A DNA stretch of 64,000 nucleotides. Origin: a virus. Of the stretch, positions 8,460-58,879 are shown piece by piece. The first letter of the stretch is position 1; the number at the start of each line of letters is the position of its first letter. The notes beneath the pieces are model-generated. The model made no database searches. It saw only the letters and a list, made by a program, of their open reading frames with translations, and was not told where the DNA came from. The DNA lies in IMG/VR virus record IMGVR_UViG_3300030085_004825, positions 58,392 through 122,391 of that record. One strand, written 5' to 3'. The position numbers and the translations under genes were made by a program.

Positions 8460-8474
8460 AGAAAATTAAAGGTT

Positions 8475-15912: not shown

Positions 15913-15921
15913 TATAATTTT

Positions 15922-16233: not shown

Positions 16234-16247
16234 ATTTTAAATAAGTT

Positions 16248-19200
16248 ATGCCTAAAAAAATTCTTAAAAAAAATGTAGTAGGAGAAGAACTTCAATCTTA
16301 CGTCTCTAATCAAATTAAAAGAAGACAAAAAACTCATGGTAGTGGAGTACTTTCATCTAGAACAACAGAACAATTAGTTCAATTAAATTCTACTAATTCT
16401 TGGGTTAAACTTGCATCAGGAGTAGCAGTCACAGATAAAAAACTACAAGATTTAGGTATTTTTGCAGGTACTGGGTTAGAAGCTTTTAGAGGGATGGGTC
16501 TCGCTAAAAACCATATTTTATTTGGTGGAGTTTCTAATTTAACAAATAATGGTGATAATTACAAATTAAACCAGCAAAATGATTTTATAGGTACTTATGA
16601 ACCTGAACAAGATTTTGGGATAGTACCTATGCCTGGAATAAAAGATTTAACAATAAAAGCTTTAAATAGAGGTTCTTTAAAGAAAGCTATTATAAAAATT
16701 AAAGCCCAAAACAGAAATCAGTTAAATATTTTAGATGCACTTTATTTAAGATTAGGTTATACTGTATTATTAGAATGGGGAAATAGTAATTTTTTAACTA
16801 ATGAAGAAGGAAGACTAGAAAAAGTACAAGATACTATTTTAGAAAATAAAGAATTATTTTTTAATGAAGGTTGGCAAAACAAAGCCTATGATGATATTTT
16901 AAGAAAAGTTGAAGAATATAGAGTCCAATATCAAGGAAATTATGATGGAATGTTGGGTAAAGTATCTAACTTTGATTGGAAATTTAATAGTGATGGTTCT
17001 TATGATATAACATTAACTGTATTAAGTTATGGAGATATCATTGAATCTTTAAAAACCAATATAACAGCCCCTTCAAGTACATATACTTTTATTGATCAAA
17101 ATAGTATAGCATCACAAGAAGGAACTTCTGTAAATGATAATAGATCAAGTAACATTATCTTTACTTTATTACAAACTTTTAAAATAGTATCTAACTTAGA
17201 AAATGGCAAATACTTAACCCCTACAGTTACTATAAATAAAAATACTCCTAAAAAAATAGGAGATTTTATAGAACCTGGCCCTGAAACAATCATTACAGGT
17301 AAAAAAGAATTTTATTATAAAACAATAGCTAGACTTAAAAGAACCCTTAATAGTAAAGAAGTAACAAGTGATGAGCTTAAATATTATAAAATAACTCCTA
17401 ATTCAAGTGAATTAGATAAAAGATTTAAAGAATTAGCAACAGCAGATGTTGATGCTTTTAAAACTGTACCTTGGAATACTGTTGAAAAATTAGGAAATAA
17501 ACTAATAGTTAGAGAACCTAATGATGGGTGGGCACCTGCACAAGCTATCCCCTATAATGGTGGAAACTTACTTCGTTGGATAGTAAATGCAGGGACTGAA
17601 GAAATTGCAGATAAAGAATTTGAAATAAGAGCTTATGGGTTTGAATTAGAAGAATCAAGCACATTAAAAAATGATATCTGCAACCCCTCAGTACCAAATC
17701 ATACTCAAAAGTTTTTTATTCCTGAATTTGAAGATAACTTTAAAGAAACAGTACTTAATAAAAGCAATTTAGGCTCTCCTAACTCATTATTTAAAAAAAT
17801 TAGAAGAGACAATGTAGAATCACTTCTTAAAAATAAAAATACTATTTATGAACTTAATAGAACAGAACCTAACCAACCTAATAACAAAAATAAATTTATC
17901 TATGTAGAGGATGTTAGAGAAGAACCATGTGGGGATTGGAATAGTGATTTATTTGAAAGTTATGATAAGTTTAATGGTGTAGGTAAAGAACTAACATTAG
18001 ATTTAGAAAAAGTTAAAGAAAAAATAAGATCATTAACAAAATTTAGGGATGTAAAGGGTAATATAATTGATATAAAGATTAAACTTGATAGAACTATTAG
18101 AGTAAGCGGAGATACAATAATTAAAGACGATAATGTAAAAAATAAAGATATATTTCCTATCCAATTTAATCCAAAACAAAAAGCTGATTTTAGATTAACA
18201 GATCCTATAATAAATAAAAGAGTAATTGATATAAGAGTTAAATGGAAAAAAAGAGTAACTAATTTTGAATTTTTAAATTGGGAACTCCCTTCTCCTGGGT
18301 ATATAGGGTTAAAATCTTATACTGATATTAGTAATTCTAATTATAATGTTAATGATATAGGTAAAATATTTTATCCTGCTAATTTTCCTAATTTAGATAG
18401 AGAAGATATTGAATATTATTCATTAAAAAGTCTTTTAAGTAAAGAGGAAAAAAAGACTTATATAGCAGTAGATAGTGAAAAATTTAAACAAGGTAAAAGA
18501 GATAACTTATTAGTAAACGTAAAAAATGATTTTGATGTAATAGAATACCCTCAAGATTTTACAATACAAAAAGATAATTTAGGAGATTTTAATATTATAG
18601 ATGAAAATAGATATTTTACTTATCCTATTCAAAACTCTACTTTAACAACTAATTCATCCCCAAGATTAAAGCGCTATAAAAGTGAAACTACAGCTTCTTA
18701 CCCATCTGAATCTAATGATCTTAGAGACCCTAAAGTTAACTACCATTACCAACACCCTTATATAGTCTGGGGCCTATCAGGTTCTACAATTAATATAGAT
18801 AGTAACGGTTTTCAAATAGAAAGAGAAAAAGTTATATTTGATGGTTTAGAAAAAGGATATGGAGGAGAATCTAGAGGGGAAAGATTTACAGAGTTACCTA
18901 TTATAGAAAAAACACCTTTTGAGTTTACACCAGGTAGGGGACCTGCTTATTCTAGTGCAACTTTTAATGATCCTGCTTTTAAAGATAAATATAACGATGA
19001 TTTTGAAACTTATAAAAGTAACCAAGGAAATATTTTAGATAGTTACCCAAAACCCGAATACGATACAGAAGGTAACATAGTAAAAGATGGATATGAATTT
19101 TTTCATAGGTTTGTAGGAGAAACCCAAGAAAAAGCAAAATCAGATAAAAAGCCCTTTTATTGGGACTTATCATTTGAACAAGAAATAACCACTTTAAGTA

Positions 19201-31221: not shown

Positions 31222-31249
31222 AAAAGGTGTACATTTGTATACCTTTTTT
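31222..31249 (+). terminator. intrinsic terminator-like hairpin
   Basis: AAAAGGTGTACA-ttt-GTATACCTTTTT. Confidence 0.6.
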
Positions 31250-31250
31250 A

Positions 31251-31258
31251 TATTTATA
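31251..31258 (+). promoter_or_regulatory. putative late promoter TATTTATA
   Basis: Heads the 31291-36977 operon. Confidence 0.55.
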
Positions 31259-31290
31259 CTCAACACACGTTTTATTTTAAATAGTTTTTT

Positions 31291-31560
31291 ATGAAAATTT
31301 ACAAATATATAAAAAGTAGAATTATGGCTTTTAAAGACATGTTTAAAGACAATAATGATGTAAATGAAAAAAACGTAATAGGATTTTTATCATTTGCAGT
31401 AATGGTATTATTTGCTCTTGCTGATTTAATAACAGGATATTTAGGTAAAGATTTAGTAGTTCAAGAATTTATTTATAATTCTTTTCTAGTAATTACTTTA
31501 GGATGTTTTGGGATAGCAGGAATTGAAAAAATATTTTCTAAAAAAGATAACGAAGAATAA
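31291..31560 (+). CDS. two-TM membrane protein, holin-like (alternative start 31324)
   Basis: Two hydrophobic helices and a charged C-terminus; same operon as the endolysin. Confidence 0.45.
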   Translation: MKIYKYIKSRIMAFKDMFKDNNDVNEKNVIGFLSFAVMVLFALADLITGYLGKDLVVQEFIYNSFLVITLGCFGIAGIEKIFSKKDNEE

Positions 31561-31562
31561 AT

Positions 31563-34361
31563 ATGAAAAAGTTTTTATTATTATTATTGTGTTTAACTAC
31601 ATTTTTTAGTTTTTCACAAGAAGTAGCACCAGTTACTTTTAGATTAGATTTAAATGAGGTTATAGATAATGTACCTAATTACGGAGAAGCTCAAGTATTT
31701 ATACAAACTAATGTTGCTAATTGGGTTGATATACCAATGGAAGATATAGGTGGAAATGGCATATATAGAAAAAATATTAATATAACCCACCCAGAAGATG
31801 AAAATATAGATGTATTTTATAGATTTAAAGTAACATCTTTTGGAACTAATGGTTTACCCTATACTTTATGGGAAGGAGGAGTAAATTCAGACCCAACCTG
31901 TCTTTTTGATCCTAGTACTCAAGGTTTAGCCGGGGGAGATATAAGGAAAGTAGTAGTACCACAAGAACTAATTGATAATGGTACCTATGTTAACCCAACT
32001 GGAGAATTTAAATTAACGCATTGTTTTAATGTATGTGGTAATGCATCATGCCCACCAGAACCTTGTATAAATGGTTTAACTTCAACTAATGCTTATCAAC
32101 AATGCATTAATGGAGGATCCCAAGCTCTTATAGTTTTTGAATGGCAAACTGAATGTGAAATACAATCTGTTGAATATACTAATGCTGAAGGAGTAGGCCC
32201 ATTTACATACCCAGTTAACCCTGATGCTTTAAATTTTGGAGTATATGCAGGAACACCGAATATGCCACCAAATTGGTCTGTAGAACACCAATTAACAGTT
32301 AATTTTGCTGATGGAACCCAATCTGCTCCTATTTTTTATACCCCACAACCATGCATCCCAGGTTGTACTGATCCTAATTCAGTATCATATAATCCATGGG
32401 CTAATCAAGATGATGGTACATGTTTAAATGCCGGTGGGGGAGAAAATTGTGACCCAGGAGATTATGAAATAACAATATCGGTAACTTTAGATAATTGGCC
32501 AGGAGAAACATCATGGACATTAGTGTCGTTGTCTGATGGAGGAATTCCTATACAAATGCCACAAGGAGAATATGATTATTCAGATGTAGGTCAAACATAT
32601 GATTATACAGTTTGTATTGATGGTCAAGGAGTTGAACTCATTATAAATGATTCATATGGTGATGGATTAGTAGGTGGTAATACTCCTGGAAATGTTGTTA
32701 TAACAGACTGTGATGGTAATATTTTATGGACTTTAACTGATGTTGCACCAAATCTTGATTTTGACTATGTAGCATATTCAGGACCTGTATTTGGAAATGC
32801 GTGCAGTGGAATAACACCTGTTCTAGGATGCACAAACCCAGCATATCAAGAGTATGACCCTACAGCAACAATAGATGATGGTAGTTGTGCAAATTTACAT
32901 GTATATGGATGTATAGATACTACGGCTTATAATTACAATCCTAATGCTACTATGCAAGAAATAATTCCTACTTGCGATTATGAGTTGTGGATTGGAGATG
33001 CCGCTGCTGATGGTTGGGGTAATTCATACATTGGTATAACCCAAGGAACAAACCAATGGACATTTACAATGGGGCCAGGTTCTTACAGTCAAACATTCCC
33101 TTTAACATTAGACACAGATAAACCTGTCGAAGTTTATTATTTTGAAATAGCGGCTCCACAACAACAAGCACAAGAAGTTGAATTTCAAACATGGCAAAAT
33201 TCATTTAAACTAACTAACGCAGATGGAGTAGTATTAATGCATGAAGGTTCTAATCCTTTTGCAAATAATGGACTAGGAGCTCTACAGCCATTTGAAGGTC
33301 CATTTTATGAAAAATATCAAGCAATACCTTTTTGTGGTGATTTATGTGTTCCTGTCATACTTGGATGTACTGATTCAACATCACTAAATTACAACCCAAA
33401 CGCAAACACAGATGATGGTTCTTGTATTCCAATTATATATGGTTGTACTAATGAATTAGCATTTAATTACAACCCTGATGCTACAGTAGATGATGGTAGT
33501 TGTATACCAACTATTTATGGATGCACCGACCCATCTTCTTGGAATTACAACCCAGATGCAAATGTTGATGATGGTTCATGTATATATTTTGGTTGTACTG
33601 ACTCTACAGCTTTAAATTATAATCCTGCTGCAAATGTAGATAATGGAACTTGTATATACCCAATATATGGCTGCACAGATCCTGAAGCATTTAATTACAA
33701 CCCTGAAGCAAATGTTGATGATGGTTCATGTATACCTGTAATTTATGGTTGTATGGATCCTACAATGTTTAATTTTAACCCTATAGCAAACACTGATAAT
33801 GGTTCATGTATACCTGTAATATTTGGTTGTACTGACTCTACAGCTTTAAATTATGACCCAATGGCTAATACAGATAATGGAACTTGTATATTACCACTTA
33901 CAGGGTGTACAGACCCAAATGCTTATAATTACGACCCAACAGCAAATGTACCAGATTCAACAGCATGTTTATATGATGCAGGTTGTATTGGGGGGCCTGG
34001 TGAACCTTATTGGTTAAATAATCCATGTTTTGCTTGGGTAATAGATGTTGATATTTATTGTTGTGAAGTAGAATGGGATGCTTCATGTCAATCAATGTAT
34101 AATTACTGTGTTGATGGTTGGCCTGTAGGAATAGATGAAATGGATATAAATGGAATTATAGTTTACCCAAACCCAACAGATAATATTTTAAACATTGAAA
34201 CTCATTTATCATTTAAATATGAATTAAGAGATGCAATGGGTAAATTAGTATTAACAGGAGAAGATAAACGTTTAGAATTAGGAAAATATGATGATGGAGT
34301 TTATTTTTTAACTATAATTCATAACGAGAAAAAATTTAATAAAAGAATCATAAAACAATGA
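31563..34361 (+). CDS. secreted Cys-repeat adhesin-like protein with T9SS type-A C-terminal sorting domain
   Basis: Signal peptide MKKFLLLLLCLTTFFSFS-Q; CBM20/48-like VTFRLD...MED.GGNGIY domain; 11 GCTD-type repeats; CTD VYPNPT..ILNI...DAMGKLV...GVYFL.....KRIIKQ. Confidence 0.88.
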   Translation: MKKFLLLLLCLTTFFSFSQEVAPVTFRLDLNEVIDNVPNYGEAQVFIQTNVANWVDIPMEDIGGNGIYRKNINITHPEDENIDVFYRFKVTSFGTNGLPYTLWEGGVNSDPTCLFDPSTQGLAGGDIRKVVVPQELIDNGTYVNPTGEFKLTHCFNVCGNASCPPEPCINGLTSTNAYQQCINGGSQALIVFEWQTECEIQSVEYTNAEGVGPFTYPVNPDALNFGVYAGTPNMPPNWSVEHQLTVNFADGTQSAPIFYTPQPCIPGCTDPNSVSYNPWANQDDGTCLNAGGGENCDPGDYEITISVTLDNWPGETSWTLVSLSDGGIPIQMPQGEYDYSDVGQTYDYTVCIDGQGVELIINDSYGDGLVGGNTPGNVVITDCDGNILWTLTDVAPNLDFDYVAYSGPVFGNACSGITPVLGCTNPAYQEYDPTATIDDGSCANLHVYGCIDTTAYNYNPNATMQEIIPTCDYELWIGDAAADGWGNSYIGITQGTNQWTFTMGPGSYSQTFPLTLDTDKPVEVYYFEIAAPQQQAQEVEFQTWQNSFKLTNADGVVLMHEGSNPFANNGLGALQPFEGPFYEKYQAIPFCGDLCVPVILGCTDSTSLNYNPNANTDDGSCIPIIYGCTNELAFNYNPDATVDDGSCIPTIYGCTDPSSWNYNPDANVDDGSCIYFGCTDSTALNYNPAANVDNGTCIYPIYGCTDPEAFNYNPEANVDDGSCIPVIYGCMDPTMFNFNPIANTDNGSCIPVIFGCTDSTALNYDPMANTDNGTCILPLTGCTDPNAYNYDPTANVPDSTACLYDAGCIGGPGEPYWLNNPCFAWVIDVDIYCCEVEWDASCQSMYNYCVDGWPVGIDEMDINGIIVYPNPTDNILNIETHLSFKYELRDAMGKLVLTGEDKRLELGKYDDGVYFLTIIHNEKKFNKRIIKQ
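33363..33968 (+). repeat. 8 tandem ~26-aa GCTDxxAxNYNPxANxDDGSC repeats
   Basis: Visible in the protein and partly in the DNA (tttggttgtactgactctacagctttaaattat occurs twice). Confidence 0.9.
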
Positions 34362-35419
34362 AAAAACTTTTAATTTTATTTCTATTATTACCTGTAATTA
34401 CATTTAGTCAAACAGAATCTAAATTTAAAAAAACAGTTAAAAAGATTTTTAAGTATTCTACTTTTTATGGTGCTGTTACTGGTGGTAATTCTATATCTGA
34501 TGTTAATGTTTATTCTGTAACAAATGGTTTAGAAACTTCAATTGTTAAAACCCCTTTTGATTATTCAATTGCATTAGGAGTTAGAAAAATAGCTAGATTT
34601 GGTTATGAAAATAGAGCTAATGTATTTTTTGATGGAACAGAAAAAACATATGGTGATGCTGCTACAATTGGTAAGATAAATGGATTTGAATATTTATTTG
34701 AAGCAGATTGGACAAGACAACAAGGTACATCATTTTTAAATCAAGACTATTTTTTAAGATATGTAGCAAAAAATTGGATTGCTAAAGCAGAATATTTAGA
34801 AGATGGATTTGCTGACATTAGATACTTTGAATCCTCAGAAAGATATAGACAAAAAATAGGAAATAAACTATCTTTTAATATAGGTGCAGTACAGCGTATA
34901 GCAGAACCTTATGGTTATAATCCATTAGATCAATGGTTATTATCAAATGGTAGTTTGCATTACACTGACTTAGCACTACAAGAAGGGTATTCTATTGAAT
35001 TTGATGGTAATGGAGGTGTAAATTATTTTAACCCTAATGGAGAATTAGTAGCAGAAAACACCCAAGTATGGGAAGCAGTAACTATACCAGAAGTATTAGC
35101 TGAATACACAGAAAGAGAAAGAAAAGCATTAAAATATCAATGGAATCATTCATTAGTAATAGGTTTTGATTTTTATCACTATACTAAAGATTTTTGGGTG
35201 CATTCATGGGGTAATGTAATGCCTTTACATTTAGAAACTAAAAGTGATTACTCATACCATAAATTTAATGGTGGGCAATGGATAGATTACTCAGGTGGTT
35301 TAATATTTGGATATAAAATTACTAAAAATTTAGGAGTATTTTTAGAAGGTAAATATAACAAATATTGGAATAGAAAATGGCACGATTTTAGTGTTGGAGT
35401 AAATTATATAATTTTATAA
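34358..35419 (+). CDS. putative outer-membrane beta-barrel protein
   Basis: Signal peptide ending FS-Q; aromatic-rich alternating strands; C-terminal strand FSVGVNY. Confidence 0.6.
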   Translation: MKKLLILFLLLPVITFSQTESKFKKTVKKIFKYSTFYGAVTGGNSISDVNVYSVTNGLETSIVKTPFDYSIALGVRKIARFGYENRANVFFDGTEKTYGDAATIGKINGFEYLFEADWTRQQGTSFLNQDYFLRYVAKNWIAKAEYLEDGFADIRYFESSERYRQKIGNKLSFNIGAVQRIAEPYGYNPLDQWLLSNGSLHYTDLALQEGYSIEFDGNGGVNYFNPNGELVAENTQVWEAVTIPEVLAEYTERERKALKYQWNHSLVIGFDFYHYTKDFWVHSWGNVMPLHLETKSDYSYHKFNGGQWIDYSGGLIFGYKITKNLGVFLEGKYNKYWNRKWHDFSVGVNYIIL

Positions 35420-35420
35420 A

Positions 35421-35705
35421 ATGGCAAAAGAATTAAACGAAGACACAGGTTTTAAAGTAAGTATAAAAACTTTAATAGGTATTGCATTTGCAATAGCAAC
35501 AGTAGTAGCAATGTGGTATGCGTTACAAGCTGATATACAAGAAGCAAAAGAATTACCCAAACCCCCTGAACCAGAAGTAACTAGAATGGAATTTGACATG
35601 AAAGATCAAATAGTTAGACAAACTATTATGACAACTCAAGAAGATGTCAAAGAACTTAAAGAAGATATGGATCGCATAGAAGAAAAAATTGATAACCTAA
35701 AGTAA
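35421..35705 (+). CDS. single-TM protein with C-terminal coiled coil
   Basis: TM LIGIAFAIATVVAMWY, Pro-rich linker, heptad tail. Confidence 0.55.
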   Translation: MAKELNEDTGFKVSIKTLIGIAFAIATVVAMWYALQADIQEAKELPKPPEPEVTRMEFDMKDQIVRQTIMTTQEDVKELKEDMDRIEEKIDNLK

Positions 35706-35711
35706 ATTATT

Positions 35712-36041
35712 ATGAAAAAGGTATTTTTGCTATTATTTAGCATATTTTTTACAATAAGTTGTTATACTCAGATTACTATTAAACATTTTAATGCTTCATG
35801 GAATGCTACAAATAATGTTACATGGCTTAAAAGCTTAACTGATTGTAGTGTAAAATACTATGACATAACTAAATCTCCTGAACTACAGAAAAAATATAAA
35901 GTAGTTGTTGTTCCAACTATTATAGTATTTCAAGATGGAGAAGAAATAGAGAGATATCAAGCAGATATCTCTTTTAAAATGCCCGCTACAAAAGATGAAG
36001 TACAAGAAGCTATTGATGAAGCTATAATGGGTGGATTTTAA
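35712..36041 (+). CDS. exported thioredoxin-fold protein lacking CxxC
   Basis: Signal peptide; HFNASWN in place of F.A.WCxxC; KYKV..VPTIIVFQDGEE cis-Pro motif. Confidence 0.7.
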   Translation: MKKVFLLLFSIFFTISCYTQITIKHFNASWNATNNVTWLKSLTDCSVKYYDITKSPELQKKYKVVVVPTIIVFQDGEEIERYQADISFKMPATKDEVQEAIDEAIMGGF

Positions 36042-36059
36042 AATTTATAAATATAAAAT

Positions 36060-36977
36060 ATGTTACTAAAAAAAGGATCAAAAGGTAAAGAAGTAAAAGA
36101 ACTTCAAAAAGCTCTAGAAATAGGAGCAGATGGTATATTTGGCTCTGGAACAGAATCAGCAGTTAAAAAATTCCAAAAAGATAATGGATTAATAGCTGAT
36201 GGAATAGTAGGCCCTGCTACCTGGGAAGCTATAGGAATAGATACAGATACAGATACTACAGCTGAAGAAACAGAGTATACAACTAAAGACGGTTTAATAA
36301 TTGAACGTCAATATTTAGATAAAAATGAGTATGTAAGAGATTATGGTAAAATAGAACCACTAGGTTTTTTCCTTCACCATACTGCTGGTTGGGATAACCC
36401 ATTCGCATGTGTAAATAGTTGGAATAAAGATAAAAGAGGTAGAGTTGCTACTCAATATGTTATAGGAGGAACTAATGTAAAAGGTAAAGAAGCTAAGTAT
36501 GATGGTGTAGTAGTAGAATGTTTCCCAAATAATTATCTAGGATGGCACTTAGGAAAAGTAGGAAATTTTAAAATATCAAAATTATCAGGTGGCGTAGAAC
36601 TTAATAATTTTGGTTACTTAACTAAAAAAGGAGATAAATATTATACTTATGTTAATACAGAAGTTAAACCTGAATTTGTTTGTGACTTAGGATATAAATT
36701 TAGAGGACACCAATACTGGCACGCATACTCAGATAAACAAATTGAATCACTTCGATTATTAATTTTACACTTAAAAGATATTTATCCAAAAATGGATTTA
36801 GAAAATGGACTTCCAAAATTATTAAAAGAAGGAGTTCATCCAAAAGATGCGTTTGAATTTAATTTAGATGCTTATAATGCAAAACAATTTGGTTTATGGA
36901 CACACACAAATGTTCGTAAAGATAAATTTGATTGCTTCCCTCAACATGAATTAGTTGAGATGCTTAAAGGTTTGTAA
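36060..36977 (+). CDS. endolysin: peptidoglycan-binding domain plus amidase_2-like domain
   Basis: LKKGSKG..V.ELQ...DGIFG..T..AV..FQ...GL.ADGIVGPATW binding domain; LHHTAG, H, RKDKFDC amidase motifs. Confidence 0.85.
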   Translation: MLLKKGSKGKEVKELQKALEIGADGIFGSGTESAVKKFQKDNGLIADGIVGPATWEAIGIDTDTDTTAEETEYTTKDGLIIERQYLDKNEYVRDYGKIEPLGFFLHHTAGWDNPFACVNSWNKDKRGRVATQYVIGGTNVKGKEAKYDGVVVECFPNNYLGWHLGKVGNFKISKLSGGVELNNFGYLTKKGDKYYTYVNTEVKPEFVCDLGYKFRGHQYWHAYSDKQIESLRLLILHLKDIYPKMDLENGLPKLLKEGVHPKDAFEFNLDAYNAKQFGLWTHTNVRKDKFDCFPQHELVEMLKGL

Positions 36978-36998: not shown

Positions 36999-37027
36999 TT
37001 GGAGTCCCAAAAGGGACTCCTTATTTT
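36999..37027 (+). promoter_or_regulatory. putative promoter TTGG-N19-TATTTT containing a perfect inverted repeat (also a possible terminator)
   Basis: GGAGTCCC-aaaa-GGGACTCC at 37001-37020. Confidence 0.5.
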
Positions 37028-37034
37028 ACATGCT

Positions 37035-38081
37035 ATGAAACGATTTTTTCCAATATTAATTTTAATAGCAGCTTTAAGTTTAGCAACTGTAGCTGCTTAC
37101 TATAGTGTTTTTGGTATTAGTAAACTATTTTCTTCTCAAGCTAGTGCTGTGATATTAATGGCTGCTATACTTGAGGCCTCTAAACTTATTACTGCTTCTT
37201 ATTTAGAAAGATTTTGGCAAACTATTCATTGGGTAAGAAAAACTTATTTAATTTCTGCTTTAATAGCATTAATGGCTATAACTTCACTTGGAATTTATGG
37301 GTTTTTAGTTTCTGCTTATCAAGAAACTGCATATAAAATGCAAGCAATAGATAAACAAGTTGAAGTAAAAGCTAAAAAACGTGATAGATACCAACAACAA
37401 ATAAAAGATATATCTAAAGAACAAAAAGATATAAACACACAAATAATTGAATTAAGTGAAAGTCTAGGTAATAATGTTATTCAATATACTAATAGTGAAG
37501 GACAACTTATAACCACACAATCCTCAGCAACACGTAAAATTATCCAACAACAATTAGATGTTCAAACATCTAGAAGAGATAGCTTAACTATTAAACAAGA
37601 TATTTTAAATGATAGTATTACAAAATTTGATTTAGATATACTAGATTTAGAAACTAATTCAGAAGTTGCAGCAGAAATTGGACCCTTAAAATATGTTGCT
37701 AGTATTACAGGAAAAGATACTGATCAAGTAGTGAATTGGTTTATATTAGTTTTTATATTTGTTTTTGATCCTTTAGCTGTTATGTTACTTATTTCTGCAA
37801 ATAAAATATTCTATGAAAATTCTAAAAAGAATATTTATGGAGAAAAAAAAACTAAAGTTTTAAAAGAAGAAAAAGTAGAGGTAAAACAGGAGGAGAGTAA
37901 AGCCGAGCGGGTTAAAGCCCCAACTCCCCCCTCTACTATTTCTTCTGAAAAGCAAAAACTTCAAGATGAAATAGCTAAAATTCAAAGATCTGGAGCTTCA
38001 AGTAAAAGAGCAGGACAAGCTATAGAAAATTTACAATCTCAAATAAAAAAAATAGATAATGATAATACTAAAACTTATTAA
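37035..38081 (+). CDS. multi-TM membrane protein with long coiled coil
   Basis: Three N-terminal TMs, coiled coil, EIGPLKY, further TM (FVFDPLA); start moved to ATG 37035. Confidence 0.6.
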   Translation: MKRFFPILILIAALSLATVAAYYSVFGISKLFSSQASAVILMAAILEASKLITASYLERFWQTIHWVRKTYLISALIALMAITSLGIYGFLVSAYQETAYKMQAIDKQVEVKAKKRDRYQQQIKDISKEQKDINTQIIELSESLGNNVIQYTNSEGQLITTQSSATRKIIQQQLDVQTSRRDSLTIKQDILNDSITKFDLDILDLETNSEVAAEIGPLKYVASITGKDTDQVVNWFILVFIFVFDPLAVMLLISANKIFYENSKKNIYGEKKTKVLKEEKVEVKQEESKAERVKAPTPPSTISSEKQKLQDEIAKIQRSGASSKRAGQAIENLQSQIKKIDNDNTKTY

Positions 38082-39326: not shown

Positions 39327-39683
39327 ATGAGTAAAGGTAACATTAAAGTAAGATTTCCTAATGAATCTTTTTATGATGAAATAAACGTAAAAAATGTTAT
39401 AGATTTTAAAATATCTAAAGAATTTGATGATGAAATTTTTGGTTATTTAAACTCTTCCTTTGTAGCTATTAAAAAAGAAGATTATAAAAAACTTAAAACA
39501 AAAGAAATGAATTTAGATAAAAAAATAGAATTTGAAAAATTCCGTGAAGAATGGAAAAAGAATTGGTATGATTACTATCGTTTATTAGATATAGATTTTG
39601 AAGCATTTATGAGAATGAAAGGATTAACAATAGAAGAATATAAACACTTAAATAACGAAGAATTATGGAAAGGCATGTTGTAG
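39327..39683 (+). CDS. hypothetical protein
   Basis: ORF with aaagttATG start context. Confidence 0.45.
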   Translation: MSKGNIKVRFPNESFYDEINVKNVIDFKISKEFDDEIFGYLNSSFVAIKKEDYKKLKTKEMNLDKKIEFEKFREEWKKNWYDYYRLLDIDFEAFMRMKGLTIEEYKHLNNEELWKGML

Positions 39684-40543
39684 TTTCCCTATCTGGAGGA
39701 ATGGACTCCAGTACATTGTTGTTACGTTGTCTAAAAGAATATGACACGGTAACAGCTATTTCATTTGATTATGGACAAAAACATCGAGTTGAATTAGAAC
39801 GCGCTCAATCATTGGTAGATTATCTTAACAGAGAACAAGATTATCAATTATCATATATTGAACCTAAATTTAGTAATATTAAATATCGTCAAATTAAATT
39901 AGATGGTTTAGTTGATTTACTTGATTCTGCATTAGTAGATGGTGGAGATGATGTACCTGAAGGTCATTATGCTGAAGATAATATGAAAGCAACAGTTGTT
40001 CCAAATAGAAACAAAATATTTGCCTCTATTACACAAGCAGTAGCACTGTCTAGAGCAAACCAAACAGGCGAAAATTGTGATATTGCACTTGGTATTCATG
40101 CAGGTGATCATGCTATTTATCCTGATTGTAGACAAGAATTTAGAGATGCAGATGATGCAGCATTTAGAATAGGTAATTGGGATGCTGATAAAGTAGGTTA
40201 TTTTACACCCTATCTTGAAGGTGATAAATTTACTATTCTACAAGATGGAGAAAATTTATGTGATTATTTAGGTCTTGATTTTAATGAAGTTTATAAACGT
40301 ACAAATACAAGTTATAAACCAATCCCAATTAAACAATTTCACCCTATGATAGATTCTATAAAATGGTACTCAGACTATAAATCAGCTTCATCTGTAGAAA
40401 GAGTAGAAGCATTTATTAAATTAGGAAGACCTGACCCTGTAGAATATGCAGATGAAACAGGCCCCGTAGAGTGGGAAACAGCAAGAATATATGTTGAACA
40501 AGTACTCTCAGAGTATGAAAAAGAACAATTTAACGTAAAATAA
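39665..40543 (+). CDS. queC: 7-cyano-7-deazaguanine synthase
   Basis: SGGMDS PP-loop, FDYGQKH, VPNRN and YPDCR motifs. Confidence 0.92.
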   Translation: MERHVVVSLSGGMDSSTLLLRCLKEYDTVTAISFDYGQKHRVELERAQSLVDYLNREQDYQLSYIEPKFSNIKYRQIKLDGLVDLLDSALVDGGDDVPEGHYAEDNMKATVVPNRNKIFASITQAVALSRANQTGENCDIALGIHAGDHAIYPDCRQEFRDADDAAFRIGNWDADKVGYFTPYLEGDKFTILQDGENLCDYLGLDFNEVYKRTNTSYKPIPIKQFHPMIDSIKWYSDYKSASSVERVEAFIKLGRPDPVEYADETGPVEWETARIYVEQVLSEYEKEQFNVK

Positions 40544-41004
40544 TGAAACATCAATCAACTAAAATATTTGATGGATTTAGTACAGTATTCCGTCAATGGA
40601 GAGCAAAAGAAACACATTGTAGTTATTTACATGGATATGGAGTATCATTTAAAGTAACATTTGAAGGTCAACTTGATCATAGGAATTGGGTTTGGGATTT
40701 TGGTGGTATGAAAAGAGCTAAAACCCAAATTGATGGTATGTCCCCTAAAGCTTGGATGGACTATATGTTTGATCATACATTAATTGCAGCAAATGATGAC
40801 CCAGAATTAGATTCATTTAGAATGATGGATGCACAAGGATTAATTCAATTAAGAATAATAGATGATACTGGTGCAGAAAAATTTGCTGAGTATATTTATA
40901 ATAAGTTAAATAGTTTTGTTGAAGAAGAAACAGATGGTAGAGTAAGAGTTACACAAGTTGAATTTATGGAACATGGAAAAAATACAGCAATTTATGGAGA
41001 ATAA
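40543..41004 (+). CDS. queD: 6-carboxytetrahydropterin synthase
   Basis: HC..LHGY, DFG, FDH and GAE motifs. Confidence 0.88.
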   Translation: MKHQSTKIFDGFSTVFRQWRAKETHCSYLHGYGVSFKVTFEGQLDHRNWVWDFGGMKRAKTQIDGMSPKAWMDYMFDHTLIAANDDPELDSFRMMDAQGLIQLRIIDDTGAEKFAEYIYNKLNSFVEEETDGRVRVTQVEFMEHGKNTAIYGE

Positions 41005-41066
41005 TTACTGGTATGTAACAACAACCTATAATAATTTTAAATTTAAATACGTTTTAGTAAAATAAT

Positions 41067-41852
41067 ATGGAAAAACCTTTAGGAAGAATAAAAGACTATG
41101 ATAAAAGATTACCTGTACTAGAACTATACAGATGTGTTCAATCTGAAGGGAGTAGATTTGGTAGACCAACTATAGCAGTTAGAACAACTGGATGCACACA
41201 TAGGTGTTATTTTGGAGAAGAAGGAGGATGGTGTGATAGTTGGTATACTAGTATACACCCAGAAAAAGGAACATTTAATTTTAATGATATTATTAAAATA
41301 TATGATGAAAATCCTCATGTAAAAGAAATGATGTTAACAGGTGGTTCACCTACAATGCATCCTGCATTAGTAAATGAATTAACTCATTTTGCAAATCAAA
41401 GAGGTATTCTTATTACTATTGAAACTGAAGGTTCTCATTTTCTTAAAACTGATTTTCCATTAGGTCTAATTTCTTTATCCCCTAAATTTTCTAATTCTGT
41501 TCCTAAAATAGGTGCTTTAACACCTAATGGAAAAGAAACAGATGAAAGAATGATTAAGCAACATAATAAATTAAGATTAAATTATAGTGCTATTAGAAAA
41601 ACATTAGACTATCACACTGATTATCATTATAAACCAGTTTGGGATGGTACTGATGAATGTTTAAAAGAAATAGAAGATTTTAGAATTAAAATGGAAATTC
41701 CAAAGCATAAAACTTTTATAATGCCTGCAGGTGATACAAGAAAAGAATTAATTAAAATGTACCCTTTAGTATTTGATTTATGTGCTGAACATGGTTATAA
41801 TTTAACAGGTAGAGACCATATAATAGCCTTTGATACAGAACGAGGAGTATAA
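41067..41852 (+). CDS. queE: 7-carboxy-7-deazaguanine synthase (radical SAM)
   Basis: QSEG..G, GCTHRC...WCDS, LTGGSP, IETEG and SPK motifs. Confidence 0.88.
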   Translation: MEKPLGRIKDYDKRLPVLELYRCVQSEGSRFGRPTIAVRTTGCTHRCYFGEEGGWCDSWYTSIHPEKGTFNFNDIIKIYDENPHVKEMMLTGGSPTMHPALVNELTHFANQRGILITIETEGSHFLKTDFPLGLISLSPKFSNSVPKIGALTPNGKETDERMIKQHNKLRLNYSAIRKTLDYHTDYHYKPVWDGTDECLKEIEDFRIKMEIPKHKTFIMPAGDTRKELIKMYPLVFDLCAEHGYNLTGRDHIIAFDTERGV

Positions 41853-43271: not shown

Positions 43272-46200
43272 ATGATAAATTATTCATTTGTAGGATACGA
43301 CATTGTAAATGATAGAATATTTTTTAAAGGCACCCCCACACCAGGCACAAAAGATCTATTCCAAGGAGAAAATCTTCAAACTTCTGTAGCTGCTGATATT
43401 CTTTTTAATTATGAAGATCAAGAAAATGAAACAATAGAAGATTCTACAACTATATCTTTTCTTAAGAGTCTTTTAACTGATTTTAGTATAACAGCTACAA
43501 AATCTGTTGATTTTAGAATAGAAATAGAAGACTTAACTTCTATCTCAAATATATCTATAATAGCTGAAAATTTAGATAAAACTAAGTCTTATGTTAACAC
43601 AGGAACTGTTACATTTGCTAAAATTTCACAATTAATTGATATTCTTAAACCAAAACCTAAATGGAAAACAATGGGCAAATGCCGAAATTGTTTAGTTGTA
43701 AATTTCCTTTCAGGATCAAATAATTATAATTTAGAAGGAAGTATAAATGGAGAACATATAGGAGATTATAATTTTAACCAAAAAAGATATGAATTTGATT
43801 TAATTGATTATACTAACCCATCTCTCCCAACTATTACACCTTATTATATTTATTGGCGCCCTAATATTACTACTTCTTTTACAGATTATGCAGGCACTAG
43901 TAGAAGTATTAGTAATGAACATAAATGGATAGCTATACCCCAAGCAGATTTTCCTACTAATATAAATACTACTAGTAGTTTTTATCATGTTCAATCTATG
44001 TTTTCTGCTTCTTGTCCTTATAGCACAGAAGTACCTAATTCAACATGGTATAACTTTTTTGGTGAAAAAGGATTTTTTAGGTTAAGTTTAGCAGCCCCAA
44101 CTTCTCCTATCCTTGGCCCAAATGATTCTAAAGAATGCCCTGAATACAGTCCTTCACCTGCTGGAGGATGGGGATTTAATTGTGGTGGTGATGGAAATTG
44201 TGTTGGAGCCCCTTCAGGATCTGTAGGAACATATGCTACTTTAGCTGAATGTGAAGTTAGCTGTAGTGTAGAAAGTACTGGAAGTTTTGGTTTTAATTGT
44301 ACACCTAATGGATGTGTTGAAGGATCAGCTGGCAATACTGGTAGTTTTGCAACTTTACAAGAATGTTTAGATAGTAATTGTAATACCCCAACTATACTTT
44401 TCCCTACCACATGTTCTGAATGTGTTGAAGGAGAAAATACAATATTAAATGGAGACTTTTCAGATGGGCTTAATAACTGGGTAATCCCACCTATGCCATC
44501 ACCAGCAGGAAACATAACTTCTGCTGGGCAAACTTTATCTGCTGCTCCTAACACTACTTTTACAGGATCTACTCCTAATATAAGTTCTTCTCTTTTTGCA
44601 CAACAAGAAGGATTATTCTCAGAAAAATGTAATTATACTGTATGTCTAGAAGCTTGGAACCCAGTAGGAGAATGTGAAATTGTAGTAGATGTAGGAGGTT
44701 CTACTCAATATCTAATATCAGATATGTTTACTACTCCTCAAGCTTATACTTTTACTTTTCAAGCAGGTGGTGATTTCCCTCTTACTTTATATATGGCAGG
44801 TTCAGGTAGATTGAATGTAGATAATGTGTCAGTATGTTTGGATTATTGCCCTCCTGGATTTGAACCACCAGGAGAAAGTTGTATTATATCTGCTTCTGCA
44901 GATTGCTATGTAGACATAGATTATGGATGTATTTGTCCTGATGGGTTTATACCTGATGTAAATAGTCCTGGTAATTGTATACAAAGTGGATCTTTTACTG
45001 TTCCTAAACTTGTAACAGGTATAGAAGTAACTGCTCCTCTAGAAGGAGACCACCGATGGGGGCCTCTTAAACCTAGTCTTTATTATAATTTTAGAATAGG
45101 GGGAGATGCAGGAAGTGTAACTGGTTCTACTTCACCATTTCAAGGAAATAGTAGAGTATACAACACACAGTTTGATTTTGATATCCTTTCAGCTAGTTTT
45201 TGGAATGAAAATGCATGGTCTGAAGATTCTTTCATGAATCAGTTTATGAGAAATATTGGTGCTCTTCCCATTGGTTACTATGGAGGAGGTAATTTTATAA
45301 ACTTAGCAACTTCAGGTACTTATCATGTAGCTTTAGCAGCAGATGATACTTTTAGAGTAAAAGTAGATGATGTTACTGTAGTTGATTTATCTCAATCCCC
45401 TGGTAATTTTAGTCTCTACCAAAAACAGCAATTTAATGCTAGAACTCCTTTAGGTCCAAATGCAAATATACCTGTACAATCCGCAGAAGATTATGATGGT
45501 AATATTATTTATCTCCCTACAGAAAATAGTAATCTAATTGATATTAATCTAGGTGCTGGTAATGGTTATGAAAATACTTATGGTTATAGATCTTTTAATA
45601 TCTACCCTATAACAATGTCAGCTGGATGCCATAAAATAACAATAGAAGGATCAGATATAGGAGGTACAGCTGCTGGATTTGGTGGAGTTATATTTAATAA
45701 CACAGCACAAGAAATTGTAGATGCTGAAAGTTTAGATGATTTAAATGATATATTTAATACACGAGATAATTTAATTTTTGATCTTGCCCTTACCTCATCT
45801 ATTACAGCTTCTTGCCCTGAAGGGACTATTGCTTTAGGTACAGGATCTTGTGATTTATGTGTTACATCAGGTTCTATGTCTACCCCATGTGGTGATTGTA
45901 TAGAATGCCCTCATGGAATACTATATAATGGCTATGTAGTAGATGAAGGAGGACCTACTTTATTAGGAAGAGGAACAGGAGGAGTAGTAAATACAGATAG
46001 CTCAGGGTCTTGGACTATTCCTGATGAAACAGCTTGGGAAACACTTATAACTTTTTTAAATGATAATACTGCTCCTACCCAAACAAATGGTGCTTTAGAT
46101 GTAATATCAGGAGGAAAAATGAAAGACTATACTCGAGATTTAGATGCTTCCTGTTGGGCTTTTCCAAATGTAGGAGCTCAAACTGATAATAATAGTAGTG

Positions 46201-46967
46201 GATGGGCTGGAGTTGCTGGTGGTCAACGTACACCTTTAGGTGTTTTTGATGAATTAGGATTTAGTGGATATTGGTGGAGTGCAAATTCAATTACTCCTTC
46301 TTCTACTACAATGAAAGCTATACAATTAAAATATTATTCTGATGATGTATTTAAAGAAACTTACACTAAAAATGCAGGATTCTCTATTAGATTAGTAAGA
46401 CCTTCCCAATCAGGAGAACTTAATGGAGACTACATCCCAGACGCATATACAGGAAATAATGGTCTTATATATGATGGTATTGTTATAGGTAGTCAAGTTT
46501 GGATAGATAGAAATCTAACAGAAACTTTATATAATTCAGGTAGTGCTCCTATTCTGAATCAAAATGATCAAGGACTTTGGAATTTAGCTACTAATGGGTC
46601 AAACGATTATAGATGCTTTTACAATAATGATTCTAGTTTTACTAGTAGTATTGTAGGTAATGTTGATCCACAAACAAATTTATGTTACCAATATCCTATT
46701 AATTATATATACCAAGAATGTAATAATAATAATATATTAATCCAAACAGAATCTGGCTCTTCTACAGCATTAAATAGTATACAAAAATCCCCAATTGATG
46801 GAAAATGTTGGAAATTAATCCAATCAGGATCAGATAATTCTTCTATAGCTGCTAATATTTTCTACCAAGGAAACTATTTCTCAGGTAGTAATCATATTTA
46901 TAGTGATTGTGATGAATGTAATGCTATACATACTATATACATGAGCTTTGAAACTAAAAACTGTTAA
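43272..46967 (+). CDS. large Cys-rich multidomain protein (CBM-like, PA14-like and FISUMP-like domains)
   Basis: ILNGDFS..L.NW; AADD.FRV.VDD..GCHKI; FISUMP motifs; duplicated GFNC...ATL.EC unit. Confidence 0.6.
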   Translation: MINYSFVGYDIVNDRIFFKGTPTPGTKDLFQGENLQTSVAADILFNYEDQENETIEDSTTISFLKSLLTDFSITATKSVDFRIEIEDLTSISNISIIAENLDKTKSYVNTGTVTFAKISQLIDILKPKPKWKTMGKCRNCLVVNFLSGSNNYNLEGSINGEHIGDYNFNQKRYEFDLIDYTNPSLPTITPYYIYWRPNITTSFTDYAGTSRSISNEHKWIAIPQADFPTNINTTSSFYHVQSMFSASCPYSTEVPNSTWYNFFGEKGFFRLSLAAPTSPILGPNDSKECPEYSPSPAGGWGFNCGGDGNCVGAPSGSVGTYATLAECEVSCSVESTGSFGFNCTPNGCVEGSAGNTGSFATLQECLDSNCNTPTILFPTTCSECVEGENTILNGDFSDGLNNWVIPPMPSPAGNITSAGQTLSAAPNTTFTGSTPNISSSLFAQQEGLFSEKCNYTVCLEAWNPVGECEIVVDVGGSTQYLISDMFTTPQAYTFTFQAGGDFPLTLYMAGSGRLNVDNVSVCLDYCPPGFEPPGESCIISASADCYVDIDYGCICPDGFIPDVNSPGNCIQSGSFTVPKLVTGIEVTAPLEGDHRWGPLKPSLYYNFRIGGDAGSVTGSTSPFQGNSRVYNTQFDFDILSASFWNENAWSEDSFMNQFMRNIGALPIGYYGGGNFINLATSGTYHVALAADDTFRVKVDDVTVVDLSQSPGNFSLYQKQQFNARTPLGPNANIPVQSAEDYDGNIIYLPTENSNLIDINLGAGNGYENTYGYRSFNIYPITMSAGCHKITIEGSDIGGTAAGFGGVIFNNTAQEIVDAESLDDLNDIFNTRDNLIFDLALTSSITASCPEGTIALGTGSCDLCVTSGSMSTPCGDCIECPHGILYNGYVVDEGGPTLLGRGTGGVVNTDSSGSWTIPDETAWETLITFLNDNTAPTQTNGALDVISGGKMKDYTRDLDASCWAFPNVGAQTDNNSSGWAGVAGGQRTPLGVFDELGFSGYWWSANSITPSSTTMKAIQLKYYSDDVFKETYTKNAGFSIRLVRPSQSGELNGDYIPDAYTGNNGLIYDGIVIGSQVWIDRNLTETLYNSGSAPILNQNDQGLWNLATNGSNDYRCFYNNDSSFTSSIVGNVDPQTNLCYQYPINYIYQECNNNNILIQTESGSSTALNSIQKSPIDGKCWKLIQSGSDNSSIAANIFYQGNYFSGSNHIYSDCDECNAIHTIYMSFETKNC

Positions 46968-51169: not shown

Positions 51170-52192
51170 ATGGGAAAGAAATTTGTTAAAAAGTATGAAT
51201 GGGTAGGTGATGTTAAATCATATAAAGAACCCGAAGAAAATGAAAACTCTATGTTCTACACAGAACCAAATAGAGATTATGATTCTAACTATAAACCTAC
51301 TAAAGAGGATATTGAAACGTTTCCTGATTTACAAAATGGCCCTTCATCACTAATTCAAGGGTCTCCTGTAGAAATTCAACAAGTAGGAATTCATAATTTT
51401 AGATTACCTTTAAGATATAAAACTCGAGATAATGGTATTATAGAATTAGAGACTAAAGTAACAGGAACTGTATCACTTGAAGCTCATAAAAAAGGTATTA
51501 ATATGTCTCGTATTATGAGATCATTTTATGAATTTAAAAATGATACTTTTAGTATAGACAAATTAGAAACTGTATTGTCTGCTTATCAAGATAAATTAAA
51601 AACTTTTGATTCTAAAATAGCACTTAAATTTTCATATCCTATTATTCAAAAATCATTAAGATCTGATAATGAAGGATACCAATATTATGATGTTACTTTA
51701 GAGGGTGATTTAAACAAACAAGGTGAATTAAGAAAAATTATTCATTTTGATTTTGTATACTCCTCAGCTTGTCCTTGTTCTTATGAATTAGCTGAATACG
51801 CTAGAAAATATAGAAATAAAGCAACAGTATCTCATTCACAAAGATCTGTAACTAGAATATCAATTGAATTTGATGATATGGTTTGGATAGAAGAATTACA
51901 AGAAATGTGTGCTAAAGCATTGCAAACTGAAACACAAGTAGTAGTAAAAAGAGAAGATGAAATGGCATTTGCTGAGTTAAATGGATCATATTTAAAATTT
52001 GTAGAAGATGCTGCTAGATTATTGTATGAGCAACTAATTAATGATAAAAGAATAAAAGACTTTAGAATCATATGTTCCCACCAAGAATCACTCCACTCTC
52101 ATGATGCTGTTTCAGTTATATTAGCTCCTAACAGTAAATTTTCTAGAGATATTCCACATGAGTTATGGTCAAGTTTAATCCATATCTCTTAA
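51170..52192 (+). CDS. folE2: GTP cyclohydrolase I type IB
   Basis: PDLQ, VGI, KGINMSR, SACPCS, HSQRS, VKREDE, FVEDAAR and ESLHSHDA motifs. Confidence 0.92.
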   Translation: MGKKFVKKYEWVGDVKSYKEPEENENSMFYTEPNRDYDSNYKPTKEDIETFPDLQNGPSSLIQGSPVEIQQVGIHNFRLPLRYKTRDNGIIELETKVTGTVSLEAHKKGINMSRIMRSFYEFKNDTFSIDKLETVLSAYQDKLKTFDSKIALKFSYPIIQKSLRSDNEGYQYYDVTLEGDLNKQGELRKIIHFDFVYSSACPCSYELAEYARKYRNKATVSHSQRSVTRISIEFDDMVWIEELQEMCAKALQTETQVVVKREDEMAFAELNGSYLKFVEDAARLLYEQLINDKRIKDFRIICSHQESLHSHDAVSVILAPNSKFSRDIPHELWSSLIHIS

Positions 52193-54825: not shown

Positions 54826-54826
54826 A

Positions 54827-56949: not shown

Positions 56950-56953
<4 letters not shown>
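56597..56953 (+). CDS. hypothetical protein
   Basis: N-terminal RGRP; GYYSSF..AL motif. Confidence 0.5.

Positions 56954-58878
<1,925 letters not shown>

Positions 58879-58879
<1 letters not shown>

Follow-up and report, generated by a model that had tools for sequence, protein, structure and literature searches.

A conserved phage gene block with a type IX secretion-tagged protein and predicted envelope proteins, placed beside lysis genes in a proposed late operon

The DNA analysed here, referred to as the window, is a stretch of 64,000 nucleotides that represents bases 58392-122391 of a 122-kb viral record (IMG/VR IMGVR_UViG_3300030085_004825), the completeness of which is estimated at 75%. 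Six open reading frames (ORFs) on the + strand, designated g1 to g6, occupy positions 31291-36977 of the window with spacings of -4 to +18 nt, and are flanked by two terminator-like hairpins. An earlier note on this DNA had described six tightly packed genes following a motif, and had proposed that a late phage operon joins a cargo protein of the host type IX secretion system (T9SS) to envelope and lysis genes. All six ORFs were recovered as described, and the proposal is partly supported, its core having withstood those of the note's refuting tests that were run. The first gene, g1 (31291..31560), encodes 89 amino acids (aa) with two transmembrane segments and is a holin candidate. It is followed by g2 (31563..34361), which encodes a disulfide-rich, multi-domain protein of 932 aa, predicted to be exported, with a type-A T9SS C-terminal domain (CTD). 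The g3 product (34358..35419, 353 aa) is a predicted exported outer-membrane beta-barrel of a family that appears to be phage-only; that of g4 (35421..35705, 94 aa) has an N-terminal membrane anchor; that of g5 (35712..36041, 109 aa) is a putatively exported thioredoxin-fold protein without CxxC; and that of g6 (36060..36977, 305 aa) is an endolysin with PG_binding_1 and Amidase_2 domains. Upstream, a hairpin with a T run on the + strand (31222..31247, 11 pairs, loop of 4) closes the preceding ribonucleotide reductase unit and is kept in the relative L001 with a single base differing; downstream, a GC-rich hairpin with a T run (37001..37020, + strand, 8 pairs, 6 of them G-C) stands directly after g6. 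The late-promoter-like motif TATTTATA is located at 31251..31258 on the + strand, 33 nt before g1. From these signals, the region is proposed to be one late transcription unit.

The distribution of these genes among related viral contigs was surveyed. Scanning IMG/VR with g3 gave 111 relatives, with 80 loci kept, and scanning with g2 gave 44; the window proteins were compared by tblastn with 122 loci, some of which are the same contig twice. Matches to g2 and to g3 were each found in 116 of the 122 loci, to g4 in 107 and to g5 in 104. The holin candidate g1 was matched in 27 and g6, that is, the window's endolysin family, in 16. Linkage was assessed in the 73 unique loci found with g3 alone, among which 36 have at least 5 kb on either side of g3. 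It can be seen that g2, g4 and g5 are each present in every one of these well-flanked loci (36/36 for each). The order g2-g3-g4-g5 occurs in 24 of the 36, the orders g3-g4-g5-g2 and g4-g5-g2-g3 are also present, and the tightest pair of the unit is g4 and g5. Judged by these comparisons, the conserved unit is the four genes g2 to g5, with g1 and g6 as variable neighbours. The conserved order of five to six genes that the earlier note proposed to look for is thus borne out for the g2-g5 block and not for g1 and g6, and even within the block the order is permuted in some relatives. Since the four genes are always found together, they must act together; and since export signals are present on three members and an N-terminal anchor on the fourth, the unit would act in the envelope. 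The block is present in more than 100 viral contigs, in which g3 identity ranges from 53 to 97%.

The CTD of g2, as the earlier note had recognised, is of type A. It covers residues 867-932 (34161..34358, + strand) and is matched above cut-off by both hidden Markov models named in that note: Por_Secre_tail (PF18962) with 34.7 bits against a cut-off of 27 (residues 867-930), and TIGR04183, 'T9SS type A sorting domain', with 35.9 bits against a cut-off of 23. In a six-frame search of the record, the type-A CTD scored 40.2 bits. A model of the domain, with a predicted local distance difference test score (pLDDT) of ~88, superimposes on 8glk_D, the substrate chain of a solved T9SS complex, with a template-modelling score (TM) of 0.83 and a root-mean-square deviation of 1.6 A (75 aligned columns, 24% identity). 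PF18962 is also found at E <= 0.001 in 42 of 51 g2 homologues, 40 of them above cut-off.

At the other end of the protein, the N-terminus MKKFLLLLLCLTTFFSFSQ forms a hydrophobic leader ending in ...FSFSQ, and residues 1-19 (31563..31619, + strand) are read from the sequence as the signal peptide that the earlier note had assigned. Signal peptides were identified here by such reading and by a crude hydrophobicity script, not by a trained predictor; with the script, an N-terminal hydrophobic stretch followed by Q was found in 79 of 85 g2 homologues. These leaders fit the 'Bacteroidetes Q rule' for signal peptidase I substrates, as outlined in PMC10367356. In the unit, g2 is the variable member, with a mean column identity of 23% over 61 sequences; its C-terminal third is conserved. 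In the predicted structure, beta-sandwich domains follow one another, together with the Cys repeats, and a small helical domain rich in Cys precedes the CTD. When the whole 932-aa model was used for a fold search, the result was dominated by chains of FnIII/Ig-like domains (TM ~0.1) and says nothing useful about the middle domains. The Cys repeats, noticed previously, comprise eight tandem copies of CTDxxAxNYNPxAxxDDGSC (33366..33968, + strand). They are the sole part of g2 that matches cultured-phage records, namely a Synechococcus phage 'virion structural protein', and they also occur in 3000-aa proteins of the related contigs L120 and L122, which are without a signal-peptide-like start.

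A variable part of g2 is an N-terminal cassette, residues 20-171 (31620..32075, + strand), delimited by alignment and resembling CBM20/48 by Atlas features. It is missing from the closest relative, L001, and the alignment breaks exactly after the signal peptide. Over residues 172-932, the two g2 proteins are 74% identical; g1 and g3-g6 are 93-97% identical between the same two genomes. In the language-model Atlas, the cassette has a feature score of 0.95-0.96 to clusters in which 10-36% of the members have a CBM_48, AMPK1_CBM or CBM_20 domain. Its structural model has a pLDDT of ~50-66, and the linker is below 50. Among the 51 homologues, other N-terminal modules were recognised: 4 proteins have MAM and 3 have AMPK1_CBM, 2 of the latter above cut-off.

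A second T9SS-tagged protein is encoded in the window by the ORF at 8415-9683 (+ strand), between the tail tube gene and the next tail gene. It matches CHU_C (PF13585), a type-B CTD, with 39.3 bits against a cut-off of 27, and, read from the Met at residue 21 within the ORF, it shows a signal-peptide-like stretch ending in Q. Among 102 related loci, 8 have a CHU_C protein directly next to the four-gene unit.

The product of g3 was modelled with AlphaFold2 from 63 homologues as a barrel of ~14 long strands (pLDDT 78, predicted TM-score 0.72), and a hydrophobic N-terminus was found by the script in 92 of 93 homologues. The protein is accordingly described here as a predicted outer-membrane beta-barrel with a signal peptide. 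The putative barrel of the earlier note is upheld, as the model is closed and the top fold matches are all outer-membrane barrels. Searches with Foldseek and VIA-align returned generic barrels (the TamA barrel, Z 10.5; Omp33, Z 10.3; OmpG, Z 9.5), and 8gl6_F, a chain of a solved T9SS-substrate complex, came no higher than 17th in Foldseek (TM 0.28), within a group of generic porins. No match at E <= 0.1 was found in Pfam or NCBIfam, PorP_SprF included, PHROGs gave no family either, and the family profile had no match among PDB sequences at E <= 10. Because the fold searches return generic outer-membrane barrels, g3 was not filed with PorV or PorP/SprF.

The g3 family is well conserved (57% mean column identity over 63 sequences) and abundant: over 4000 homologues were retrieved from metagenomes at E <= 0.001, and among the 120 listed no Pfam domain or informative name was seen. 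The Atlas clusters nearest to g3 are 100% viral. When the g3 profile was compared with 1.84 billion representatives, 428 matches at E <= 0.001 were obtained, mostly fragments, of which the best 150 were listed, and a remote link to a bacterial family is possible. In reference genomes of 185,579 species, one genome each, g3 was found on 7 contigs, all of them from metagenome-assembled genomes (MAGs), and in no isolate genome among these species representatives. Six of the 7 MAG contigs carry further genes of the module together with phage genes, and the seventh holds a 40-residue g3 fragment at the contig edge. One Flavobacteriales MAG contig keeps the order RNR (ribonucleotide reductase)-g1-g2-g3-g4-g5-g6-g7-g8-QueC. 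As far as seen in these searches, the g3 family is restricted to viral or metagenomic sequence.

The two small proteins of the unit are g4 and g5. The most conserved protein of the unit is g4, with 70% mean column identity in an alignment of 68 members. It has one N-terminal hydrophobic segment and a brief Pro-rich section, and its charged C-terminal part, which is conserved, looks helical from the sequence. The earlier description of this 94-aa protein as a transmembrane coiled-coil protein is therefore retained as to its single N-terminal transmembrane anchor. Neither an informative family nor a spanin family was found for g4 in Pfam, NCBIfam and PHROGs; phrog_1009, of unknown function, is matched by 28 of the 68 members. 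The topology fits that of an inner-membrane spanin (i-spanin), with a part beyond the membrane of only ~50 residues, and no embedded + strand ORF of at least 25 aa is present in g4. Thioredoxin (PF00085) is matched by g5 with 23.5 bits, equal to the cut-off, and at E <= 0.01 by 65 of 68 family members. A hydrophobic N-terminus was detected by the script in 82 of 84 g5 homologues, and CxxC is present in the mature part of none of the 68 members, the site reading FNAx(W/F)NxxN. These results agree with the exported thioredoxin-fold protein without CxxC seen in the earlier reading. Because the fold is present without the redox motif, g5 should not be filed as an oxidoreductase. A weak match to TrbC_Ftype occurs in 5 of the 68 members. 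The candidacy of g5 as an outer-membrane spanin (o-spanin) was also considered and was rejected because the lipobox Cys is not conserved: among 28 relatives compared, few carry a Cys in the leader.

The genes at the two ends of the operon are a holin candidate and an endolysin. Two hydrophobic 19-mers, residues 26-44 and 60-78, were found in g1 by a Kyte-Doolittle scan, in accordance with the two transmembrane segments previously reported, and the C-terminus is charged. No family, holin families included, was matched by g1 above cut-off in Pfam, NCBIfam or PHROGs. In the relatives L038, L087 and L128, g1 lies directly before an endolysin or a lipoprotein-endolysin pair, in the order g5-g1-(lipoprotein)-endolysin, and g1 remains a holin candidate. 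The endolysin assignment of g6 holds: PG_binding_1 is matched with 59 bits, Amidase_2 with 27.2 bits against a cut-off of 26, and endolysin PHROGs with E-values down to 3e-17. The protein is without a signal peptide and without a transmembrane segment. Short stretches of g6 or g1 were matched in cultured-phage records by nucleotide and protein searches. No other PHROG of the lysis category was found among 54 other ORFs of the window, two further flanking ORFs or the 68 ORFs in the other 58 kb of the record. On this annotation, g6 is the sole recognisable endolysin of the 122-kb record, itself incomplete.

The association with lysis genes extends to the relatives. ORFs within 2.5 kb of the unit were clustered in 102 unique loci, with labels taken from one representative per BLAST cluster, and a recognised holin or endolysin lies within this distance in 50 of the 102 loci and in 30 of the 64 with both flanks. 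The holins belong to phrog_3427 (23/102 loci) and Phage_holin_4_1 (8/102), and the endolysins to Amidase_2 (12/102), Peptidase_M15_3 (10/102) and phrog_3000/33083 (8/102); DUF5675 is present in 13 loci and a DUF2279-like lipoprotein in 4. In about 20 of the 102 loci, portal and head genes surround the unit, and the 2.5 kb on either side hold no lysis gene. Because of these ~20 loci, the unit is best described as located in late regions, often and not always in the lysis cassette.

The small DUF2279-like lipoprotein (phrog_26616) was observed in or beside the unit at L087:14915-15277, L093:13605-13907 and L060:4164-4466. It is encoded between g4 and g5 in L093 and between g1 and the endolysin in L087, and could be an o-spanin-like partner in those few relatives.

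The motif before g1 is shared with structural genes of the phage. Overall, TATTTATA is not enriched in the window, with 29 matches against 24.4 expected. On the + strand, however, 12 of 21 copies are intergenic and stand 7-64 nt before start codons, intergenic DNA being 4% of the window; of the 8 copies on the - strand, 2 lie between genes. The intergenic + strand copies begin at 168, 3594, 5847, 7858, 9689, 11144, 13602, 31251, 42255, 56526, 59161 and 62730. They share an extended AT-rich form, near aaTATTTATAAyAAAA, and the genes behind them include a head-tail adaptor-like gene, both tail sheath genes and the tail tube gene, among others. Ahead of g1, the motif is retained in L001, L002, L010, L012, L039 and L087. 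It precedes g1 or g2 in 10 of the 102 unique loci, which are fairly close relatives or one other clade, and therefore gives no timing for other clades. In phage T4, the late promoter element is TATAAATA, and by analogy TATTTATA is probably a late promoter element of this phage. The late expression put forward in the earlier note is plausible because the operon carries the promoter-like motif of the tail genes. A sigma-70 promoter scan was dropped, having given fewer sites in the sequence (70) than in shuffles (93).

The wider annotation takes in the whole window and the other 58 kb of the record. Every long ORF of the window is on the + strand, and the G+C content is ~0.29. A PHROG scan found two tail sheath paralogues, the tail tube and baseplate proteins at 3.6-16 kb; a single-strand DNA-binding protein, a UvsX-like recombinase, an exonuclease, a DnaB-like helicase and both ribonucleotide reductase subunits at 23.8-30.9 kb; and, downstream of the operon, QueC/D/E-like genes, a DNA polymerase in two ORFs, GroES/GroEL and clamp-loader subunits. 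The remaining 58 kb encode terminase, portal, protease, major head protein and baseplate proteins. The source is a large, uncultivated myovirus from marine metagenomes. The host is most likely a flavobacterium, and 3 of the 7 MAG contigs with the unit were binned to Bacteroidota, which is weak host evidence. Contigs from two marine metatranscriptome runs of one study are 85-95% like all 30 bins of the window. These contigs were not counted as evidence of transcription because they come from relatives and an RNA library may contain DNA.

Gene order, domains, localisation signals, conservation of the block, its restriction to phages and the shared promoter-like motif were all obtained by computation. 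The reading that we favour, and in which we place about even confidence, is that, shortly before lysis, a late cassette sends the hypervariable, glycan-binding g2 protein out through the host T9SS, assisted by three envelope proteins dedicated to it. The export route, the timing, the physical contacts within the unit and the purpose we infer as follows. Late in infection, g2 would be exported by Sec, its signal peptide ending in Q as in Bacteroidota, and would fold in the periplasm with the formation of many disulfides. The host T9SS would then recognise the type-A CTD and move g2 across the outer membrane, so that it is displayed on, or shed from, the infected cell, where its exchangeable N-terminal modules (CBM20/48-like in the window g2, MAM or others in relatives) may bind glycans. 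The proteins g3, g4 and g5 would be dedicated partners of g2, and the roles suggested for them are an outer-membrane anchor or receptor for g3, a periplasmic holdase for the Cys-rich cargo for g5 and a membrane tether for g4. Finally, the holin candidate g1 would let the signal-less g6 reach the wall, and the cell would lyse.

Several points weigh against this scheme. The presence of a T9SS in the host is an assumption. PF18962 is not matched at E <= 0.001 by 9 of the 51 g2 homologues; some of these end in ...LLGRP...LFYIYDDGSVEKK, which is taken as a divergent CTD. No Pfam carbohydrate-binding family is matched by the window g2 at E <= 0.1. Because of this and of the weak model of the cassette, carbohydrate binding by the N-terminal cassette is a lead and not a result; the carbohydrate-binding adhesin of the earlier note has support to that extent, from the CBM20/48-like module, and tethering, aggregation or exclusion would be candidate purposes of it. 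On current searches, g3 is without specific likeness to the T9SS barrels PorV and PorP/SprF. To our knowledge, type-A cargo does not need a dedicated barrel, so that nothing in known T9SS biology demands g3-g5 as cargo partners. Among 50,697 phage records, from which the window's own genome was possibly excluded, no g3 homologue was found, and g2 was found only via the Cys repeat. The motif is the sole basis for late expression. Lastly, the lysis genes beside the unit in half of the related loci suit an explanation by lysis at least as well.

Under that explanation, the trio g3-g4-g5, with or without g2, would carry out an envelope-spanning outer-membrane lysis step after the endolysin and would replace spanins without a lipoprotein. 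This is the main alternative and has to be taken seriously, at a probability that we judge rather low. The predicted locations (g4 in the inner membrane, g5 in the periplasm and g3 in the outer membrane) would suit such a function, g4 shows i-spanin topology, and the trio shares one putative transcription unit with g1, the holin candidate, and with g6, the sole endolysin. The operon shows no spanin pair of the classical kind, as there is no embedded ORF in g4 and a leader Cys is rare in g5. Moreover, the 50 of 102 loci near lysis genes involve three unrelated endolysin families and two holin families, and the replacement of neighbours by unrelated genes of the same job suggests a functional link. 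However, the lysis labels come from one representative per BLAST cluster, one clade has the unit among head genes, and the ~20 loci between portal and head genes have no lysis gene nearby. The ~50 residues of g4 beyond the membrane are short for spanning the periplasm, and we know of no outer-membrane barrel that acts in phage lysis. An obligate, hypervariable T9SS cargo (36/36 loci) would be left without a reason. Another reading is also conceivable, in which the unit is a Bacteroidota-specific phage egress machine: g2, delivered by the T9SS, would be coupled through g3, g5 and g4, and this assembly, not spanins, would do the outer-membrane lysis step and determine to which surfaces or particles the lysing cell or its debris adheres. 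This we regard as unlikely.

A further possibility is that the unit remodels the cell surface against phage adsorption, either for superinfection exclusion or so that progeny are kept off debris, by masking, or competing for, receptors delivered by the T9SS. This seems improbable to us; surface masking or exclusion is a possible purpose within either scheme, whether cargo or lysis. The exclusion genes imm and sp of T4 and llp of T5 are expressed early, and the operon described here carries a motif of tail genes. No likeness to exclusion families was found in Pfam, NCBIfam or PHROGs (PADLOC not covered). Nevertheless, g2 diversifies like a receptor-binding protein, and its Cys repeat is common to cyanophage proteins with the annotation virion structural and the 3000-aa proteins of L120 and L122. 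Superinfection effects were also proposed by the authors of PMC7468147 for variable phage T9SS cargo.

The two remaining explanations are contradicted by the export signals and by the conservation of the unit. That g2 is a fibre or decoration protein of the virion, with g3-g5 as assembly factors, would accord with the Cys repeats in annotated virion proteins, the placement of the unit beside portal, head or tail-fibre genes in some relatives and the chain of beta-sandwiches in the g2 model, as in fibres and adhesins; yet the virions of tailed phages assemble in the cytoplasm, the signal peptides of g2, g3 and g5 and the T9SS CTD of g2 are conserved across the family, and g3 is modelled as a membrane barrel, which leaves this very improbable. 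It is hardly credible that the cluster was inserted recently from a host, or is a chimera made in assembly, and lacks a role specific to the phage: the G+C content does rise in g2, to 0.36 at 32-34 kb against ~0.29 elsewhere, but this rise falls on the Cys/Gly/Asp-rich repeats and has a parallel at 44-46 kb in ORF 43272-46967, the operon signals are common to tail genes, and, as the earlier note had expected of a genuine phage cluster, the same block is present in the >100 viral contigs and, among the reference genomes, on the 7 MAG contigs alone, with no isolate genome carrying g3.

Comparison with known systems places the cargo hypothesis in context. Phage-encoded proteins with type-A T9SS CTDs have been described from metagenomes for 'Cryophage' (PMC7468147), and gut phage contigs encode sorting-domain proteins with BACON repeats upstream of head genes (PMC6949934). 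The novelty that the earlier note saw in a candidate new system therefore does not extend to phage T9SS cargo as such. It applies to the four-gene unit, which was in no paper found by full-text literature search, subscription journals and supplements lying outside its scope. In PMC10013915, T9SS is mentioned for the host alone. Shared with the Cryophage and gut contigs are the phage type-A sorting domains, their high variability between variants and the presumed use of the host T9SS. The difference is that the cargo there consists of single genes (endoglucanase, GH39, PA14, BACON), and that the available text of those reports mentions neither a barrel, anchored-helix or thioredoxin-fold partner nor a link to lysis. 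Compared with cellular type-A cargo, such as the F. johnsoniae substrate of PDB 8glk, g2 has the same plan of a Sec signal peptide, folded passengers and a CTD of ~70-75 residues; unlike it, g2 is the gene of a lytic-type phage, behind a tail-gene-like motif and with three apparently phage-only envelope proteins.

The pairing of g2 and g3 has a counterpart in the type-B CTD cargo that is encoded adjacent to a cognate PorP/SprF-like barrel, as in SprB/SprF. In both cases, the gene immediately downstream of the cargo gene encodes an outer-membrane barrel, predicted in the case of g3, of ~300-350 residues. However, the CTD of g2 is of type A, g3 has no PorP_SprF match, and the type-B protein of this phage (8415-9683) lies 25 kb away. 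Two-component spanins are known from lambda (Rz/Rz1) and T4 (PseT.3/PseT.2). The operon resembles these in the i-spanin topology of g4 and in the cassette with a holin candidate and an endolysin; it differs in having no outer-membrane lipoprotein partner, in the very short part of g4 beyond the membrane, in an outer-membrane member that would be the integral barrel g3, and in the thioredoxin-fold g5, which has no counterpart among spanins. A periplasmic thioredoxin fold without CxxC is also found in TraF of the F plasmid. An exported thioredoxin fold without redox motif and an envelope assembly are common to the two, whereas there is no significant sequence relation, no conjugation genes are present and g5 is much smaller. 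Phage-encoded outer-membrane proteins such as Lom and Bor of lambda and Llp of T5 are small 8-strand barrels or lipoproteins, with temperate or early expression. Like them, g3 would be a phage protein placed in the host outer membrane, but it is a predicted ~14-strand barrel of an unrelated and seemingly phage-only family.

Flavobacteria and their relatives process much of the algal polysaccharide of the ocean, and their phages are mostly uncultured. With more than 4000 metagenomic homologues of its barrel gene, the four-gene unit is a frequent element of marine phages to which no function is assigned. If export occurs as predicted, a lytic-type phage hijacks host secretion for surface display of a variable binding protein before lysis, and the three partners provide a ready handle for genetics. 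If the trio instead performs the outer-membrane lysis step, it addresses how these phages cross the outer membrane. Should the egress assembly prove true, it would answer that question for phages of Bacteroidota and would be the first lysis step dependent on a secretion system.

Several other features of the record were observed. The gene after the operon, 36999-38081 (+ strand), is listed with a TTG start that overlaps the hairpin at 37001-37020; an in-frame ATG at 37035 (residue 13, MKRFF...) is possibly the true start. Its product has four hydrophobic segments and stands beside the cassette in close relatives only (9/122 loci). The two tail sheath paralogues are adjacent, at 3622-5820 (732 aa) and 5868-7841 (657 aa) on the + strand, each with its own TATTTATA motif. 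In the part of the record upstream of the window, at G000:C1 ~15500-18100, about 2.5 kb contain no ORF of at least 60 aa passing the filter. The DNA polymerase is split between the ORFs 52799-54562 and 54809-55759 (+ strand), which match successive parts of phrog_262; between them is an 87-aa ORF (54562-54825, + strand), and the arrangement may represent a split gene or an insertion. GroES/GroEL homologues are located at 56950-58879. At 43272-46967 (+ strand), behind the TATTTATA-led gene at 42276, where the G+C content climbs to 0.36, is a gene for a 1231-aa protein with a Fib_succ_major match of 47.5 bits and a weak PA14 match, which may be a fibre or another binding protein. QueC-, QueD- and QueE-like genes together with a type I GTP cyclohydrolase (folE2) are present at 39665-41852 and 51170-52192 (+ strand), and this gene set suggests 7-deazaguanine modification of the DNA.

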